Positions 11,500 through 50,053 of a DNA stretch of 64,000 bases are shown here, one piece after another. The notes beneath the pieces were generated by a model. It ran no database searches, was not told where the DNA came from, and worked only from the letters and a program-made list of their open reading frames with translations. This stretch comes from Klebsiella phage KPP2018, in sequence record NC_110934.1; one strand, 5' to 3'. How positions within the stretch are numbered: position 1 is the first letter of the stretch; every line of letters begins with the position of its first letter. The translations under genes were made by a program, and so were the position numbers.

Positions 11500-11540
11500 A
11501 TAAACCCCAGTGGATTGTCCACTGGGGTTTTCTTTTATTT
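11500..11540. terminator. bidirectional rho-independent terminator between convergent early (+) and late (-) transcription units
   Basis: CCCCAGTGG-ATTGT-CCACTGGGG hairpin. T-run on + side (TTTTCTTTTATTT) and A-run on the other side (AATAATAAA). Confidence 0.8.
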
Positions 11541-13622
11541 AGCGAGAAGTTGTTTTACCAATTCCTTGAGTTCGTCAATTTCTTGCTGCTGCTTCTCAAC
11601 CACTTCATTAAGCTCATTAAAAGCATTTACTAACAAAGCATTTACGCCAGAGTGAGACACACCAAGCATACTATCTTCTTTCTGTGGGTCAATCTTGTAT
11701 ACCGCTTCTGGAAGAACAGTCTGCACATCTTGTGCTATAACTCCAGCCTCAATACTGTACAGGGTATCTCTGTCTTCTACTAGATTATTTCTCTTATAGT
11801 ACGTATAACCTACTAGAGACTTAACCTTATCGCGAGCATTCTCAATTTCCTTAAGATTGGCTTTCATGCGAATATCAGAACTGCTTATCCATTGACCAGC
11901 AACAGCATTACCACCGCTATCAAAATGAAACTCCGCCCCCCTGCAATATATATTTAACTGTGCACCACCGGCACTCCAGCCTACTACATCCATGCCGGCT
12001 AACCAGTCTACACCCCACAGTACGCTTTTAAATACAGAAGATGCAGAATCCAATCCAGTATGTTCTACTAGTACTCCTGTAGGTCTTGATCTCCAATCAG
12101 TAAATGCACCCCCACTAATAGTACCACTTATTAGTGACCCAGATTCCCCACTTGCAGCCCCCTGTACTCTAATGGCACCTCGATTAGAAATTGCATTAAC
12201 TAATTGCCCCAAAGCCCCATGAGCTTGCTGCCATACACCCCAGACACCTCCCTGCATAATACGTACGCTTACTGAACCGCTCCAAGCTCCTGTAAATATG
12301 GTGGCCCTTTGCATTCTATAGCTAGGATCTGGGTGTACTAGAGTTTCTAAGAAAAACCACGCGTCTTCTAGCCCGTTTATTTGTTGGTATGGTCGAGTAC
12401 CAACAATATTTCCTCCAGTAGGTGGAACAGTAAACTTACTATTTACAGCAAGAGTGTCAAAATTAAACCCATTTGGGTATTTACCATCTATAGAGGACAA
12501 GAGGTTCCACTCTGTTAATTCTAGATTTTTTCTAGCTTGGTCAGCAGAATTAGCTCCTGTACCTCCGGCTGCAATAGCCAAAGGAACCCAAGTACCGGTA
12601 TCATCTCTCCATGTACCCCATTCCCCATTAGGTCTAGCAGTGATTCTAAATCCACTTCCGGGAGCGTATACCATGGTCTCAGTAGCACTTTGTTTGAATC
12701 TGTCAATATCCAGGTTAGTTCTTGCACCATCTTTAGAAGTAGCACCAGTACCTCCATTTGAAAACTGTACGATAGACTGGGCGTTAAATTGCTCTTGCCA
12801 CCCTCTCCAATTATCCGTACCATCTAGAACATTGATCCAAGTACTTCCAAGTGCTCCAGTAGCTTTTAGTGTACCATACTGAGCAGCTCCGTTAATATCT
12901 ACACCATGACAGTGGAAGTTATATGCCCACCAACCTTGTTGCTTAGGGGGTCCATTAACTATTAATTCACCAGATGAATAATACCCGCTTTGACCTGCAA
13001 CCGCAATATAGTTTAGAACATCTTCCCCATCAGCAATTTTTTCAGCCCAGGCGCCAACTGGAACATTAAGATTTTTTCTTGCTGCTTTTGGAGTAGTTCC
13101 TCCAGTACCACCATATGCAACTTTTAATGCTTGTATTGCTGCAGTAGAATTATCAAGTAGACCAAAATCTCCACTATCATATATAAATAAAGAATATTTC
13201 TCATTAGGAGATACAATAAAAGTTCCGTTACTCTGTTGGCGAAGGCGCTCAACTTGTAAGGCCTTCTTAGCACCCTCTAACGTAGTAGCACCAGTACCGC
13301 CCTGGGTAAGTGTAATAGCTTTAGTCAGTGCATTTAATTCTGTAATATCGTTATTAGCACCTTTAGCAGCTTTAGTACCTAAAGTAGTATTAATACCACC
13401 TAATGCAGTATTAATATTACCAATTGATTCATTAATACTATTAATAGATGCATCAGTAGCAGCTTTATCAGTAGTATATTTAGAAACTTGTAGATATTTG
13501 GATGTTAGTACGACAGCACCAGCTTCTCCATCAACAGAGAAAACGCCGGCAACTGCGGCGTCTCTATTAACTACAACATAGGGGGCCATAGCCCCACTTT
13601 TTGGCATTAAATTACGTGACAT
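11535..13622 (-). CDS. tail fibre protein (LtfB-like) with C-terminal intramolecular-chaperone (S74-type) domain
   Basis: 695 aa. Gly/Thr-rich repeats (GGTGATT..., GGTGGTTP...). C-terminus DIRMKANLKEIENA...YSIEAGVIAQDVQTVLPEAVYK...coiled coil, typical of the auto-cleaving chaperone domain of phage fibres. Confidence 0.7.
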   Translation of the reverse strand: MSRNLMPKSGAMAPYVVVNRDAAVAGVFSVDGEAGAVVLTSKYLQVSKYTTDKAATDASINSINESIGNINTALGGINTTLGTKAAKGANNDITELNALTKAITLTQGGTGATTLEGAKKALQVERLRQQSNGTFIVSPNEKYSLFIYDSGDFGLLDNSTAAIQALKVAYGGTGGTTPKAARKNLNVPVGAWAEKIADGEDVLNYIAVAGQSGYYSSGELIVNGPPKQQGWWAYNFHCHGVDINGAAQYGTLKATGALGSTWINVLDGTDNWRGWQEQFNAQSIVQFSNGGTGATSKDGARTNLDIDRFKQSATETMVYAPGSGFRITARPNGEWGTWRDDTGTWVPLAIAAGGTGANSADQARKNLELTEWNLLSSIDGKYPNGFNFDTLAVNSKFTVPPTGGNIVGTRPYQQINGLEDAWFFLETLVHPDPSYRMQRATIFTGAWSGSVSVRIMQGGVWGVWQQAHGALGQLVNAISNRGAIRVQGAASGESGSLISGTISGGAFTDWRSRPTGVLVEHTGLDSASSVFKSVLWGVDWLAGMDVVGWSAGGAQLNIYCRGAEFHFDSGGNAVAGQWISSSDIRMKANLKEIENARDKVKSLVGYTYYKRNNLVEDRDTLYSIEAGVIAQDVQTVLPEAVYKIDPQKEDSMLGVSHSGVNALLVNAFNELNEVVEKQQQEIDELKELVKQLLAK

Positions 13623-16600
13623 TAACTAGTACCTTTCATTTTGTCTAACTCTGCTTCTAAATTTGATAATCTAGTCATCAAATCAAGCTTTTCGTTAATG
13701 TTGTCAATAACAGTAGACATCTCGTGTAATTTAGTCTCAAGAGACTTATTTCTTTCAGATAATACTTTAATAGCAGCTAAAGCATCCATTAACAATGGAT
13801 TGGTATCTAGAGTTAAAGTAATATCGTCGGTTTCAGGGTTGCCAATAGCTTTAACGTATTGAGGATCAATCAACTCTAATTGTTGTGCAATAACACCACG
13901 TCTAATATTCTTTTTCTTATCAAACTTATAGGTGAATTTCTTGAACTCCATTTTTTCAATATTTTCAAGAGATTCTTCACCCGATACATCCTGAATATTA
14001 TCTTTTAGATTGATATCAGATACCGCATTTTTAGTATAGGTAAAATTAAAGACAGTGTTATTATAGTCTGTCCCCCATCCGTTAATATCCCCTGACATAT
14101 GAAACTGATAGGTGCATGCCCAGTTAGAGTCCCCTCTTAGTCTAACTACATAGGCAGGCCAATCAATACCCCGGGATATTAATCCAGTAGTAGCTCTCAT
14201 CGGATAACCACCTGTAGATTGAGTACGAGCACTAATAATAGGTACAAACCCACTATCATTATCTACTACGTCAGAAGCTTGAAAAGGAGCGAAGAAACCA
14301 AATGAATCCCCATCCCATGTCTTCTGGTATCCTTGAGTATGCATGCGCTCTGCATTCCAAGCCCCTGAATCCATATACAGATTAGCATATTTAGTAGCGG
14401 TTAAGGAACCGTCTGCAGTACGTCTATAGGCAGCTATCGTAGCTCTTTCGGTAAGAGATTGGCCATAATTACCTTCTGAATAAAATAGCGCTTCTAAACG
14501 AGGTGTGTCTGGATCCACCGAGTTATCCAACTGGACTTGTGCGGAAAAAACCTCCGATCCTAAGTAAGATCCCGCCGAAGGAACCGCGTGGTATTTACGG
14601 GAAATAACACCACCATTCTTAATATTAATAGGCCAACCTTCCAGATTACGTAGCTGAGTAATATCGAAGTTAATACCAGCACTTGCAGCCTCTAAGTTTT
14701 TTCTAGCTTGAGCTGGCTCAGTAGCTCCAGTACCCCCATGCTCAACAGGTAAAGATACCCACTTGTTCTCAGAATGGTCGTATACTCCCCAGTTTTTAGT
14801 GTCTTGGACCATAAACACTATATTTTGATCCTGAGAGGTTATATGTGTTCCTCCTTCTAGCTGCTTTACTCTATCCACTTCTAGGTTAGTTTTGGCGGAA
14901 CTAACTGTAGAAGCTCCTGTCCCTCCTTTAGCTAGACTTAAGACACCTTGAGTATCCCCGTTTAAATCCGGCTTATTAACAGTACCATAAAGAATATTAG
15001 TATGAACAATAGGGTTTTCGCTGTCTAAAATAGCATCATTGATTGCAGCTGCAAATACTACTGCACTACCATACCCAGAACAGATAAATGAGTTAGTATC
15101 TGCTGTTCTAGAGTAGAAACCTGCAGAATACGCTGGCAAGCCCTGAACCCCAGTATCGTTGCGATAATACCCAGAACCAAAAGCTCTCATAGCCTTGAAA
15201 AATGATACTATATCAGGTTCATTTAATGTAATACCAACACCACCTAAACCAAAAGCACCGCGAAGCAGAACTTCTCCATTAGTGCCATTCCAAGCATTCT
15301 TAGTAACAACGTTACCTAGTGCTAGGTTTCCATTCTCATCTGGTATAACAGTTCCATTAACCATCGCCACGTAAGGGAGCTTAATAGCTCCAGTATCATC
15401 AGCAGGACCAATTCCATTCACAGTAGTGATATAAGGGATTTGTTCCTTGATAGCACCACCATCTTCTTCTCCCTTAATGGGTGCACGGAAAGCCTGCCCC
15501 TGCATCATATCTGGTAAACGAAAGGTTGTGGAACCATCACCAGTGGAGAAGTAGAGTGTTGCACCAGCCTGCCATTGTTCTTCCGTAACAGAGGGGATTA
15601 AGCCAGCCTCAATAGCTTCCCAAGTATCTGGATAGTCTACACGAAGAACTTCACGACCATCAGCAGGAAGAACACCAGGGTAGCCAACACCTGAATCTTT
15701 ATCATAGGGGAACCAAGTAACTTCACCCAGCCATAAAGAAGGGTTACCACCAGGAAGAGTAATCTGTACGTTACCCGCGTCATCTGCACGAACGTTATTA
15801 ATAGAAACTAGCTTTTGCTCTATTTCTACTAATTCTAGAACAGGAGCCTCGGCAGTACCAGCGACCTTATACCACCCATATTTTGAATCAGTTTGATTCC
15901 ATACTAGGATCTTCTCCCCTAGCACACGACTTCCAACATCAGCATCGGCTTCTGCTTTAGTCTTATAAACTTTGATGAAACCAGAAATATCTACCTTATC
16001 AAGTTTACTATCAACAATCTGAGTTGCACGATCTGCTTCAGCTTTAGCACGATCTGCTTCAGTAGTAGCGTCAATAGCTTTGTCACCCGCTTCTGTAGCA
16101 GAGCTAGCAGCATTAGTCTCAGAAGTTTTAGCATTTAATTCTGATTGCTTAGCAGCAGCAGCGTGTTCTCCAGCAGTTGTAGCAGCAGCATCTGCTCCAG
16201 CTTTTGCGGTTTCAGCGCCAGCCTTAGCAGTTTCAGCCGCTGTCTGAGCTTGTTGAGCAGCAGTTTTAGCTTGTTCTGCAAGTCTACGACTGTTCTCAGC
16301 ATTCTGAGCAGCTAGTTCAGCAGAATCTCTAAATCCTTTAGACTCTTCCGCTGATGTAGCAGAAGCATCTGCACTCTTCTGGGATAATCTAGCCTGTTTC
16401 TCAGATTCTGCTGCTGAAGCTGCAGATTGAGTAGCTGATGTTTGGGAAGAATCTGCATAGATACCCGCCATAATTTCGGAGTCTTTTGCTTTATTCTCAG
16501 AATCTTTAGCAGCAATTTCAGAACCTTTTGCTGCCGCCGCAGAAGCAGCGGAGGCTTCTACAGCAGAAGTTAATTCACCAGCAGTAATAGAGCTAATAGA

Positions 16601-16702
16601 ATTTCCTAAAACTACTGTATATTTAGGATACTTACTAGCAGTAGTTGTAGTGTCATCTATGTTCAGAATCTGCTGTACAATAATTTTAGTTTTAAGTGCC
16701 AT
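13622..16702 (-). CDS. L-shaped tail fibre protein (pb1/LtfA-like) with C-terminal intramolecular-chaperone domain
   Basis: 1026 aa. Ala-rich coiled-coil N-region. C-terminal SDINLKDNIQDV...RRGVIAQQLELIDPQYVKAI...coiled coil. Located next to the collar gene as in T5. Confidence 0.75.
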   Translation of the reverse strand: MALKTKIIVQQILNIDDTTTTASKYPKYTVVLGNSISSITAGELTSAVEASAASAAAAKGSEIAAKDSENKAKDSEIMAGIYADSSQTSATQSAASAAESEKQARLSQKSADASATSAEESKGFRDSAELAAQNAENSRRLAEQAKTAAQQAQTAAETAKAGAETAKAGADAAATTAGEHAAAAKQSELNAKTSETNAASSATEAGDKAIDATTEADRAKAEADRATQIVDSKLDKVDISGFIKVYKTKAEADADVGSRVLGEKILVWNQTDSKYGWYKVAGTAEAPVLELVEIEQKLVSINNVRADDAGNVQITLPGGNPSLWLGEVTWFPYDKDSGVGYPGVLPADGREVLRVDYPDTWEAIEAGLIPSVTEEQWQAGATLYFSTGDGSTTFRLPDMMQGQAFRAPIKGEEDGGAIKEQIPYITTVNGIGPADDTGAIKLPYVAMVNGTVIPDENGNLALGNVVTKNAWNGTNGEVLLRGAFGLGGVGITLNEPDIVSFFKAMRAFGSGYYRNDTGVQGLPAYSAGFYSRTADTNSFICSGYGSAVVFAAAINDAILDSENPIVHTNILYGTVNKPDLNGDTQGVLSLAKGGTGASTVSSAKTNLEVDRVKQLEGGTHITSQDQNIVFMVQDTKNWGVYDHSENKWVSLPVEHGGTGATEPAQARKNLEAASAGINFDITQLRNLEGWPINIKNGGVISRKYHAVPSAGSYLGSEVFSAQVQLDNSVDPDTPRLEALFYSEGNYGQSLTERATIAAYRRTADGSLTATKYANLYMDSGAWNAERMHTQGYQKTWDGDSFGFFAPFQASDVVDNDSGFVPIISARTQSTGGYPMRATTGLISRGIDWPAYVVRLRGDSNWACTYQFHMSGDINGWGTDYNNTVFNFTYTKNAVSDINLKDNIQDVSGEESLENIEKMEFKKFTYKFDKKKNIRRGVIAQQLELIDPQYVKAIGNPETDDITLTLDTNPLLMDALAAIKVLSERNKSLETKLHEMSTVIDNINEKLDLMTRLSNLEAELDKMKGTS

Positions 16703-41819: not shown

Positions 41820-43484
41820 TTATGCGAAAAATTTGCCGTTTTTAAAGTCAATCAAAGTGCGCTGGCCGTTTGCATATGTAATTAAATGCGTTTGCGTCCA
41901 GCTTGACGCGCCAACGTTGTAGCCCATATCGAGGGAACCAGCGACGCCAGCGGTATAAACGCCGCCGTATATGCTGGCGGTGTGAGTGTGCCCCGTGTTT
42001 AACTTGCCCAATTTCTTAAATTGCTTCGGATTGCCACGGCTGCCGTTAATGCCGTTGTGACCGTGTACGCCGCACTCAATGCCTGCAATCTTGAAAGATT
42101 GGTCAGTGGTCAGGAATATGGCGTTAAACTCGCAACCTGCAACCGTACGCAGCGCATAATCTAGCACGTTGAAAGTATCGTCATGATCACCGATTGCCGC
42201 GTAAATTGCAGCATTCAGGCGGTGATATAGTTCCGCGTTGGCGGGGTCGTCTTTGATGTTAGCATTACGATCATCAAGCCAACGGGATAGCGCCAAATCG
42301 TGATTCGATTCGACAATGATCGTTTGACTAAAATCGCGCTCCATTGACTCCAGCACGCGCCCGGTATCGATGAGATCATCCAGAACTTTATCACGTCCGG
42401 CGGCATACTGTTTTGCTAGGAATACACCGGATGCACGGTTATGATGATTGCGCGATGTAAAATCGTGAACGTCATGGATAAACTGATATTTTGGTTTAAG
42501 AATATCAAGCAAGCTATTTTCGCCAGCCCATGACGCAGCGGCGCAATCATCATCCAATTTTTCCGCATGAATATCGCCATACTGCAAGCCTAAAACATGC
42601 CCCGACGTTTCAAAGCATCCGGCGGGGGTCGCGCAAATATTCAAATCGTAAAACATGCCGCTTTCATCCATCGTTTCAAGCTGGCGAACAAAAAATTCAC
42701 CGTCTTCGTCGAACTCGACAATAAGCGCACCGTAATTATGCAGCGCTTCGGCTTTTTGCCCTGCTTTTTGCTGAATGTAGTTTTTGAGTGTTGCCGTTCC
42801 GGTTGAATACATGCGGCGCACTACTTCACCTTTGAGAGCTGGGACACTTTCGGCGGTAATTTTAGCGTGACCAATTGCCAGACCTTCAATATTTAAAGCC
42901 GTTGCAGTTTCTGCGAATCCAGAAAGCGGATAATCTGCCGTTGGCAAAACATTAATTTCAGCCATGAAAGCAAAACGGCGATTATTTAAAAACACGTTTT
43001 TGCTGCAAATATATTTATCAAACGCGGAATCATATTTTACACCGTCAGCGCCTTCACCATTCTGGAAGCCGTTTTTATTATAAATATACTTAGAAACAAG
43101 CAAATCAGCGCCGATAAATTTAGCATATTGTTCAAGCGAGGCTAAAAAGTTTTTATGCGGGAAAGTATTATTCTGAATCGATGTAATAATAAAGCGTTTA
43201 CCTTGTTTGACTTCCCACTGTTCCACGGTACTAGAAACAATCCCAGCCGCTTCGGGGCGCTCGTCGTTTTTAATAGCTTTTACAGCTTTCGCCGTTTTTG
43301 GTTTCGCTGGTTTATTTGCTTCCAACCAATCGCAAATTGCTGTCGAGTGTTTTGCAGTATCGTAAACCGCTTTCGAAATATCGTCGCATACTTCCAGTTT
43401 AGTGGCGCGCAGACGTTTACCGTAGAAATTAAAGTCAGCGGCTAGTTTCATGATAGCGGTTTGTTTTTCTGCGGAAATAATCAT
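41820..43484 (-). CDS. A1: A1-like pre-early protein (metallophosphoesterase-type nuclease, 554 aa)
   Basis: Calcineurin-like motifs GDIHAEKLDDD, GNHD-like NHD..., GHTHTASI. Size near T5 A1 (556 aa, as I recall). Start moved to ATG at 43484 (MIISAEKQ...) with RBS TAATGGAGTTTATTATTATG; the tracked 584-aa start lacks an RBS. Confidence 0.7.
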   Translation of the reverse strand: MIISAEKQTAIMKLAADFNFYGKRLRATKLEVCDDISKAVYDTAKHSTAICDWLEANKPAKPKTAKAVKAIKNDERPEAAGIVSSTVEQWEVKQGKRFIITSIQNNTFPHKNFLASLEQYAKFIGADLLVSKYIYNKNGFQNGEGADGVKYDSAFDKYICSKNVFLNNRRFAFMAEINVLPTADYPLSGFAETATALNIEGLAIGHAKITAESVPALKGEVVRRMYSTGTATLKNYIQQKAGQKAEALHNYGALIVEFDEDGEFFVRQLETMDESGMFYDLNICATPAGCFETSGHVLGLQYGDIHAEKLDDDCAAASWAGENSLLDILKPKYQFIHDVHDFTSRNHHNRASGVFLAKQYAAGRDKVLDDLIDTGRVLESMERDFSQTIIVESNHDLALSRWLDDRNANIKDDPANAELYHRLNAAIYAAIGDHDDTFNVLDYALRTVAGCEFNAIFLTTDQSFKIAGIECGVHGHNGINGSRGNPKQFKKLGKLNTGHTHTASIYGGVYTAGVAGSLDMGYNVGASSWTQTHLITYANGQRTLIDFKNGKFFA

Positions 43485-43573
43485 AATAATAAACTCCATT
43501 AAAGGGATAAGGTTAATAACGGCAATATTGCCAAATATAACGCCTCGAATAATAGGCGTTATAATTTGCAACA

Positions 43574-43819
43574 TTAATTTAAAGGCATAAGGCTAGAACT
43601 AACACCACAAACAACGGCGGCAATAAAACAAATCAGACCTAAACGCTTCGCCAATCTAGATTTACGTTTAAAATAATACGAATCTAAATCATTTTGAAAA
43701 TATGCGAACAATAACGAGGCCGCCATAATAAATAGTCCTAGAATCAATGATTCAGTAGGGTAAAAGATCATTTTAAAAACTCCAGTTAAAGGGAAATTAT
43801 AGTGGGGAATAATCCCCAC
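43574..43819 (-). CDS. small membrane protein (81 aa)
   Basis: Two predicted TM helices. RBS ACTGGAGTTTTTAAAATG. Confidence 0.5.
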   Translation of the reverse strand: MGIIPHYNFPLTGVFKMIFYPTESLILGLFIMAASLLFAYFQNDLDSYYFKRKSRLAKRLGLICFIAAVVCGVSSSLMPLN

Positions 43820-43828
43820 TATTTAAAT

Positions 43829-44235
43829 TTATTCACCTGCGGCCTGTTTTACTTCATCGGCAACGCCTAACAGCTGCGCCACGGCGTCCAGCGTTTCCAG
43901 TTTCGCGCTTTCAAGGCTTGCCAGATCATCAGCGTCTTTGATAATGCCGGAATCAATAGCGTGTTTTGCAATTACGCGCACATAGTGAGCTTTACGGATT
44001 GAGCTACCGCCGCCAACTTTGCGCGGCTTATCGCTCTTCTGATAGGCTTTTGCGCTGGTCAATTTTGAGCGAACGGATACGGGGAGGCCGCACCAACTGC
44101 TTTCGCAATCTCTTTTAAACCGTCGCTATTTGCAAAATCTAAACCGTTTTCATTGATTAACTGCTGGTACATGGTAACAGCTTTCTGGGTGTTTTCTTCA
44201 TTCCAGGTGAATTTTGCGGTTTTTGCGTTAGTCAT
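43829..44235 (-). CDS. split A2-sized pre-early gene (58-aa N-terminal ORF 44059-44235 and 77-aa C-terminal ORF 43829-44062 in -1 frame)
   Basis: Upstream part has strong RBS TTGGAGTTTATATCATG and stops at 44059-61. Downstream part is open from 44197 in the -1 frame. U UUA AAA heptamer at 44114-44120 lies in the overlap. Fused product about 127 aa. Confidence 0.4.
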
Positions 44236-44332
44236 GATATAAACTCCAATTAATTTAATTTAAGGGATTAGATTAACTAATGTTAATCGTTATATTCCCC
44301 ATATTTCAGGGGAATATAAAGTTAACACTAAT

Positions 44333-44584
44333 TTATAATACAGCTTCCCATTTTTCGTTGCGTTGAACAACCTTTACAACGTCGCCGGATTTAACGCGAA
44401 CGTTATAAATCGGCTTGCCGTTGTTACTGCGTTCTGTTTCAGCGTATACCGCATCGATTGTATCGAACGGCATAAGCGCCGCGCCTTTAATACGTTCGGC
44501 TTTTCCGGTTAACTCATCCGTTTTAGTAACGAAAGGAATAAAAACGGATTGACCAATTTTCGGCGCATTAGTAACGTTTTTCAT
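44333..44584 (-). CDS. hypothetical pre-early protein (83 aa)
   Basis: RBS ACTGGAGTTTATACCATG of the same family as the other pre-early genes. Confidence 0.5.
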   Translation of the reverse strand: MKNVTNAPKIGQSVFIPFVTKTDELTGKAERIKGAALMPFDTIDAVYAETERSNNGKPIYNVRVKSGDVVKVVQRNEKWEAVL

Positions 44585-44813
44585 GGTATAAACTCCAGTT
44601 TATTCAGTGGATTGTTTCGCATTACCTGCTAAAAAGTATCAGGTAATAAGAAAAAATCCGCTCGCCATTATAAAATCAATTTAAAGAACTCCACGAAGGC
44701 CGCTATATCCCGTTAGGGGGCGGGGCACATTATGGTAAGTGCCGACCGTCAAATTGTATCAAGTTATCGCTCTTGTCGAACTGGGTACATCTTAAAGCCT
44801 ATCGGCTGGGGTG

Positions 44814-45862: not shown

Positions 45863-45945
45863 AATAATAACTATAAGAAATCATCACCAGTATAATAACA
45901 ACTATAAGAAATCATCACCACTATAATAATAACTATAAGAAACTA
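45863..45945. repeat. tandem direct repeat, about 27-bp unit x3 (TAATAACAACTATAAGAAATCATCACC)
   Basis: Three consecutive near-identical copies visible in sequence. Confidence 0.8.
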
Positions 45946-49861: not shown

Positions 49862-50035
49862 CACTTCCGTTCTTAAATGAGAATCATTATCATTTGCATT
49901 TCACTATCTAACTAATAATCATTCCGCTTTTTAAATGAGAATCATTCCGCTTTTTAAATGAGATTGATTCTCATTCCGCTTTTTAAATGCGAATTATTAT
50001 CATTCTCATTCCGCTTTTTAAATGAGAATGATTCT
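49862..50035. repeat. tandem array (5 copies) of about 24-bp unit TTCCGCTTTTTAAATGAGAATCAT
   Basis: Copies begin near 49862, 49922, 49944, 49970 and 50007. The unit contains the half-site AAATGAGAAT of the palindromes at 49519-49541 and 40448-40466. Confidence 0.8.
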
Positions 50036-50053
50036 TATTATCATTCGTATTTA

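Follow-up and report, generated by a model that had tools for sequence, protein, structure and literature searches.

A pre-early A2 gene with a probable sequence error, and not a recoding site, in Klebsiella phage KPP2018

Two open reading frames upstream of A1

On the minus strand of the window, by which we mean the whole 64-kb stretch of KPP2018 DNA that was analyzed, two short open reading frames, KPP2018_043 and KPP2018_044, are deposited in GenBank as adjacent "hypothetical protein" ORFs. The features of the locus to which we refer are as follows.

44333-44584: DUF7177 gene (KPP2018_045), upstream of A2
44244-44247, minus strand: Shine-Dalgarno sequence of A2 (GGAG), 8 nt before the ATG (44235-44233), kept in relatives
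44059-44235, minus strand: ORF1, the 5' part of A2, 58 codons plus TGA (44061-44059), annotated KPP2018_044, exact match to WBF69833.1
44113-44119, minus strand: TTTAAAA heptamer, in the X XXY YYZ phase of ORF1 (GG-T TTA AAA-G; Gly39, Leu40, Lys41)
44081-44084, minus strand: C4 run (GGGG on the plus strand), the site of a one-base deletion, placed by alignments and by a blastn gap at 44084 against two genomes
43829-44062, minus strand: ORF2, the 3' part of A2, 77 codons plus TAA with a TTG start, annotated KPP2018_043, exact match to WBF69832.1
43799-43822, minus strand: 10-bp, GC-containing hairpin directly 3' of the A2 stop and before the next small pre-early gene; terminator-like or a processing site
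41820-43574: A1, downstream of A2

This layout agrees in outline with that given by a sequence-only reading of the same DNA, which had described a 58-codon ORF with a ribosome-binding site, an ATG at 44235 and a TGA at 44059-61, followed by a 77-aa ORF (43829-44062) in the -1 frame relative to the first; both were recovered, the ribosome-binding site being GGAG (44247-44244) and the start of the second ORF a TTG. The TGA of ORF1 and the TTG of ORF2 overlap as TTGA at 44062-44059. Codons 1-52 of ORF1 correspond to native A2, while its last six (YPFAQN) are an out-of-frame read-through past the deletion, and native codons 53-135 begin at 44080, upstream of the called TTG of ORF2, in a frame that is open from 44125.

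The two ORFs tile a single protein profile. In PHROGs, ORF1 matches positions 1-52 of the phrog_1725 "DNA binding protein" profile (E 2.5e-14) and ORF2 matches positions 59-128 (E 2.2e-26), and the protein obtained by restoring one C to the C run matches positions 1-128 (E 1e-51). Likewise, tblastn with the A2 proteins of relatives places residues 1-52 in frame -2 and residues 52-135 in frame -1, the latter 100% identical at 44083-43832. The C-restored A2 shares 96-99% identity with the A2 proteins of many Tequintaviruses, and PF26822 (Phage_T5_A2) is present in every one of the 67 A2 homologues found in a large protein collection, their lengths being 130-141 aa except for a few truncated calls. 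A megablast search with positions 43500-44700 matched 436 phage records, the best at ~92-94% identity, whose annotation of the aligned part is "A2 protein / DNA binding protein A2", placed between a small hypothetical gene and A1. The order DUF7177 gene, A2, small membrane gene, A1 is the same in fp01, S124, SP15, SP33, and ABTNLsp9. Judged by these homology searches, the two ORFs are the halves of one T5-type A2 gene in a Tequintavirus (T5-like) genome, and both the profile tiling and the synteny bear out the earlier suggestion that they are parts of an A2-sized protein upstream of A1 that are related by a -1 change of frame.

The A2 protein of T5 and BF23 is a pre-early, dimeric dsDNA-binding protein that associates with A1 and acts in second-step DNA transfer, and in T5 it is essential for infection and for that transfer, being encoded by one of only two essential pre-early genes (bioRxiv 10.1101/866236; bioRxiv 10.64898/2026.04.02.716235). 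KPP2018 A2 is like gene A2 (A2-A3) of these phages in its full-length family, in its position upstream of A1, and in its ribosome-binding site, and it is equal in length once one C is restored, whereas in the deposited form its frame is interrupted at Ser51-Pro52. An uninterrupted ORF of 134-138 codons is the only feature of the T5 A2 family (PF26822 / phrog_1725) that KPP2018 lacks. We refer to KPP2018 A2 as a putative DNA-binding protein, the biochemistry and genetics being known only for T5 and BF23.

Two further observations concern the surroundings of the gene. Perfect GC-containing hairpins (e.g. ATAGTGGGGATTATTCCCCACTAT) follow both the A2 and the DUF7177 genes (43799-43822 and 44290-44325), with similar ones in relatives, and these may serve to terminate transcription or to direct RNA processing between pre-early cistrons. 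The longest A1 ORF has 584 codons, starting at 43574 on the minus strand and abutting the upstream gene, while most relatives annotate 554-556 codons; similarity to A1 of ABTNLsp9 starts only at 43484 and there are several small indels relative to relatives within 43491-43576, so the start of A1 in KPP2018 is uncertain.

The missing cytosine and its place in the protein

Alignments of A2 with fp01, S124, and SP15, with SP33 and ABTNLsp9, and with three metagenomic alleles reveal one length difference only, 407 nt in KPP2018 versus 408 in its closest relatives (the single A2 ORF of relatives spans 408-417 nt overall). The closest relatives have five cytosines in GCC TCC CCC GTA (Ser51-Pro52-Val53), where KPP2018 reads GCCTCCCCGTA with four (44084-44081), and C5 alleles are found in loci L016, L018, L019, L020, L023, and L026. 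The deletion lies ~30 nt downstream of the TTTAAAA heptamer, and it is this single base, not the slippery site as the sequence-only reading had proposed, that accounts for the relation between the two frames. A sequencing indel or a pseudogene had been named there as alternatives, and an indel that restores one frame was indeed found, by comparison with relatives and not from reads.

Adding one C back gives one protein of 135 aa and ~14.7 kDa that three independent intact alleles (from two SRA runs and one ENA metagenome) encode without a single difference. These alleles differ from KPP2018 at 24, 19, and 7 nucleotides, of which 23, 18, and 5 are at third codon positions, with no amino-acid changes. 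The KPP2018 gene carries no secondary mutations. Identity of the protein in spite of 7-24 nucleotide differences argues that a single A2 frame was under selection until the tip of the lineage. Both gene halves, including the stretch from the heptamer to the deletion and that from the deletion to the ORF1 stop, have thus evolved as one frame under purifying selection, and the break is either extremely young or not real.

The split layout was then sought among relatives. One continuous A2 ORF of 134-138 codons is present in 40/40 IMG/VR loci and two separate conserved genes are present in none, which is the outcome of a comparison with A2 of T5 and its relatives that had been suggested from the sequence. 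Among the INPHARED matches listed for the query 44040-44135, 30/30 records have one extra base relative to KPP2018, and the aberrant ORF1 tail (YPFAQN) was matched in 0 of the 527 phage records hit by tblastn with ORF1. A degenerate pattern for the deletion allele gave no matches in IMG/VR, GTDB genomes, or JGI metagenomes, and the corresponding pattern for the normal allele gave seven in IMG/VR. These alignments and pattern searches show a frame break that is seen in the KPP2018 genome alone among the relatives examined.

Natural tolerance of an N-terminally truncated A2 was considered from a cluster of 83-aa proteins (P0053) and rejected, one member being a T5 nonsense variant and another an UNVERIFIED record. 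The first of these, a contig in an Enterococcus faecalis assembly (JBKKEE010000020.1; GCA_046614105.1; locus L014, A2 at 1799-2206), is T5 itself (99.94% over 3405 nt against the T5 of IMG/VR). It has only two differences from T5, both G-to-T changes in A2 (Q17H and E29 to a TAA ochre codon), and there are reports of the contig from two samples. This is probably a T5 nonsense mutant in A2 of laboratory origin, or else a contaminant that was sequenced beside Enterococcus.

The position of the break was viewed on the AlphaFold model of a 93%-identical A2 homologue (mean pLDDT 83.5), which has two helical domains joined by a low-confidence linker at residues 65-79. In this model the break is predicted to fall outside the linker and within the N-terminal domain, at the turn that leads from helix 2 into helix 3 (PVSVRSKLTS), and this is the best-conserved part of A2. 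A Foldseek search of the model against the PDB gave nothing significant, with weak HTH/Myb-like matches of which the best had an E value of 0.84.

The TTTAAAA heptamer and rival readings of the break

The heptamer does fit X XXY YYZ in the zero frame, as had been noted from the sequence, although its position is 44113-44119 and not 44114-44120. The -1 frame had been taken as open from 44197, but it contains stops at 44152-44150 (TGA) and 44128-44126 (TAG) and is open only from 44125, giving a productive 0/-1 overlap of ~22 codons (44125-44062) with the heptamer inside. TTTAAAA occurs 36 times in the window versus 36.9 expected from shuffles. In-phase X XXY YYZ heptamers of any kind number 56 in 15,072 codon positions of long ORFs, or 0.0037 per codon, and the probability of at least one in the 22-codon overlap is ~8%, so that the heptamer alone is not above chance. 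Moreover, GGT TTA AAA is found together with an intact A2 in 5/40 loci, including both T5 terminal-repeat copies, and in one of the three metagenomic alleles, and most relatives encode the conserved Gly-Leu-Lys by the synonymous GGC CTG AAA or GGC TTG AAA. Its occurrence in T5 and in other intact A2 genes argues that the heptamer is an older synonymous polymorphism that is independent of the break. From these comparisons we regard it as an ordinary synonymous codon variant with no apparent part in the frame break.

A slip at the heptamer would yield a protein of 135 aa (41 + 94), not of about 127 aa as first estimated, with a junction in which ...FANSDGLK is followed by RDCESSWCGLPVSVRSKL... 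in place of the predicted ...INENGL followed by FKRDCE.... The expected trans-frame peptide would contain SDGLKRDCESSWCGLPVSVR, with SDGLK joined to RDCESSWCGLPVSVR. Ten codons would be misread before the deletion restores the frame, converting EIAKAVGAAS to RDCESSWCGL, and on the AlphaFold model and conservation the lost residues are predicted to form helix 2 of the N-terminal three-helix domain, including an invariant Ile. For the 86 nt comprising the heptamer and the sequence downstream, in a calculation confined to folds without pseudoknots, the minimum free energy was -19.7 versus a shuffle mean of -18.7 kcal/mol (z = -0.34), and inspection found no AGGAGG-like element 8-14 nt upstream that could act as a Shine-Dalgarno-like stimulator. 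With established programmed -1 sites (E. coli dnaX, A AAA AAG; the G/GT of lambda-like tail assembly chaperones) KPP2018 shares only an in-phase heptamer in a 0/-1 overlap. In contrast to those sites, neither its heptamer nor its frame layout is conserved, no stimulatory structure or upstream Shine-Dalgarno element was seen, and its frame break is accounted for by a unique deletion. The A-site codon also differs from that of a dnaX-type site, being AAA in KPP2018. In enterobacteria AAG is a more slip-prone A-site codon than AAA.

Programmed -1 ribosomal frameshifting at U UUA AAA (44119-44113), by which ORF1 and ORF2 would be fused into a 135-aa variant of A2, was the reading that the sequence had first suggested, and the correct phase of the heptamer, its place within the 22 codons open in both frames, and a fused product of normal A2 length are all as that reading expects. 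Nevertheless, we consider it very improbable: T5 and other phages have the same heptamer in an unbroken A2, no relative examined has the two-frame layout, a heptamer of this kind is expected by chance at the frequency given above, the downstream fold is no better than shuffles and there is no upstream stimulator, and the product would lose predicted helix 2. Comparison with relatives brings heptamer frameshifting close to being refuted. We give equally little credence to A2 being made as two polypeptides, with ORF1 translated from its own ribosome-binding site and ORF2 by termination-reinitiation at TTGA. The stop/start overlap has a geometry that can support translational coupling, but a TTG that lacks a Shine-Dalgarno sequence makes a poor start, split genes are found in no relative, and the predicted break lies between helices 2 and 3 and not in the linker, with VSVRSK, including an invariant Val and Lys, absent from both pieces. 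A split at a domain boundary giving two functional pieces was rejected on the same grounds, the position of the break and the six conserved residues missing from both pieces.

A more serious rival is a real and very recent deletion, produced when replication slipped on the C5 run as the phage was propagated, with the phage surviving by leaky expression or by complementation in a mixed stock. We see this as possible but the lesser prospect. The leaky route, as read from the sequence, would have the tRNA-Pro in the P site slip spontaneously by -1 on the C run (UCC CCG, then G UA), and by inspection this gives back the exact ancestral reading and hence wild-type A2 at a low level. A lesion that is a one-unit homopolymer change, the lack of secondary mutations expected of a very young lesion, and the clean state of the rest of the window, where no other gene is frame-broken, all fit a real deletion. 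Against it, T5 cannot do without A2 and every relative examined has the gene intact, there is no stimulatory structure (z = -0.34 for the fold), and an allele that is lethal or nearly so should not become the consensus of a lysate. On a run of four cytosines, unstimulated slippage should stay well under a few percent, and this too counts against a leaky deletion. It is most unlikely, in our estimation, that the C4 allele is both real and fixed, with the phage living on a trickle of A2 from the C-run slip or on a variant from U UUA AAA, such that the cut in A2 could be an escape from an A2-sensing defence and the C run could act as a contingency locus. The ColIb ibf/abi system senses A2 and is thereby triggered to abort infection (PMC10644984).

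An ordinary A2 gene and the deposited record

We are highly confident that the locus is an ordinary A2 gene with a broken frame, as opposed to a recoding device. It would encode the usual pre-early A2, a 135-aa DNA-binding protein needed with A1 for second-step DNA transfer, and the deposited sequence is without one C of the five-C run over codons Ser51-Pro52, which shifts the frame. It is because the frame is shifted by the missing C that gene callers see ORFs of 58 and 77 aa. As to how the C was lost, we lean toward a lone homopolymer-length error in sequencing or assembly that is absent from the phage DNA, and if so the real phage would make a normal full-length A2, with the heptamer upstream of the run having no role.

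A record error is favored by the nature of the lesion, a homopolymer altered by one unit in a gene that is essential to T5 and unbroken in all relatives examined. Against it, replication slippage in the C5 run gives exactly the same lesion, and A2 is the only frame-split gene among the ~80 compared (tblastn with the 78 annotated ABTNLsp9 proteins over the whole 64-kb window), in a window that contains 291 homopolymer runs of at least five. A generally error-ridden assembly was rejected, as tblastn of the 78 relative coding sequences found no other frame-split gene, and the error, if there is one, must then be taken as a solitary event. On the side of an error is the quality of the KPP2018 record (OQ031075.1), which has 137,988 bp and from which other authors have removed a ~20-kb duplication (PMC10644984).

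It also speaks for an error that two other deposited records, KKP_3822 and the "UNVERIFIED" GE_vB_N8, carry indels at this short run of C in A2. In Salmonella phage KKP_3822 (OQ674104.1, 1201-1620; locus L056) the annotated "protein A2" is only 62 aa, and there are two extra C at the run (AGTCCCCGGTG versus AGTCCGGTG in relatives) and then one extra base ~170 nt downstream. GE_vB_N8 (MG969413) has several lesions, including one at the same run. Both are like KPP2018 in the site of the indel and in having a truncated A2 annotation, but they have +2 and +1 changes (KKP_3822) or several lesions (GE_vB_N8), whereas the KPP2018 lesion is one clean -1, with the other genes of the window undamaged. 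Indels may thus recur at this short C run, be it through sequencing or through biology.

The locus is in essence a known gene with a probable sequence error and not a real recoding feature. KPP2018_043 and KPP2018_044 are best annotated as one gene, A2, with a flag for a probable sequence error or frameshift, and the heptamer site should stay off lists of candidate recoding signals. If the deletion proved to be real in a viable phage it would be of moderate interest, bearing on how much A2 is needed for second-step transfer and also on escape from A2-triggered abortive infection.

Elsewhere in the window, tandem repeats of 23-35 nt (consensus TCATTCCGCTTTTTAAATGAG...) lie at 49917-50046 and 45863-45942, in a large non-coding pre-early/terminal-repeat stretch that has many indels relative to SP33 and ABTNLsp9, and these are probably the counterparts of the repeats known to surround the injection stop signal of T5. 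At 11538-16702 on the minus strand are two consecutive long tail fibre genes of the LtfA/LtfB type, which fits the published remark that KPP2018 has two LTF proteins. The first of these diverges from ABTNLsp9 after about residue 676, its C-terminal part having 34% identity, and from this pattern of similarity it looks like a receptor-binding domain swap.
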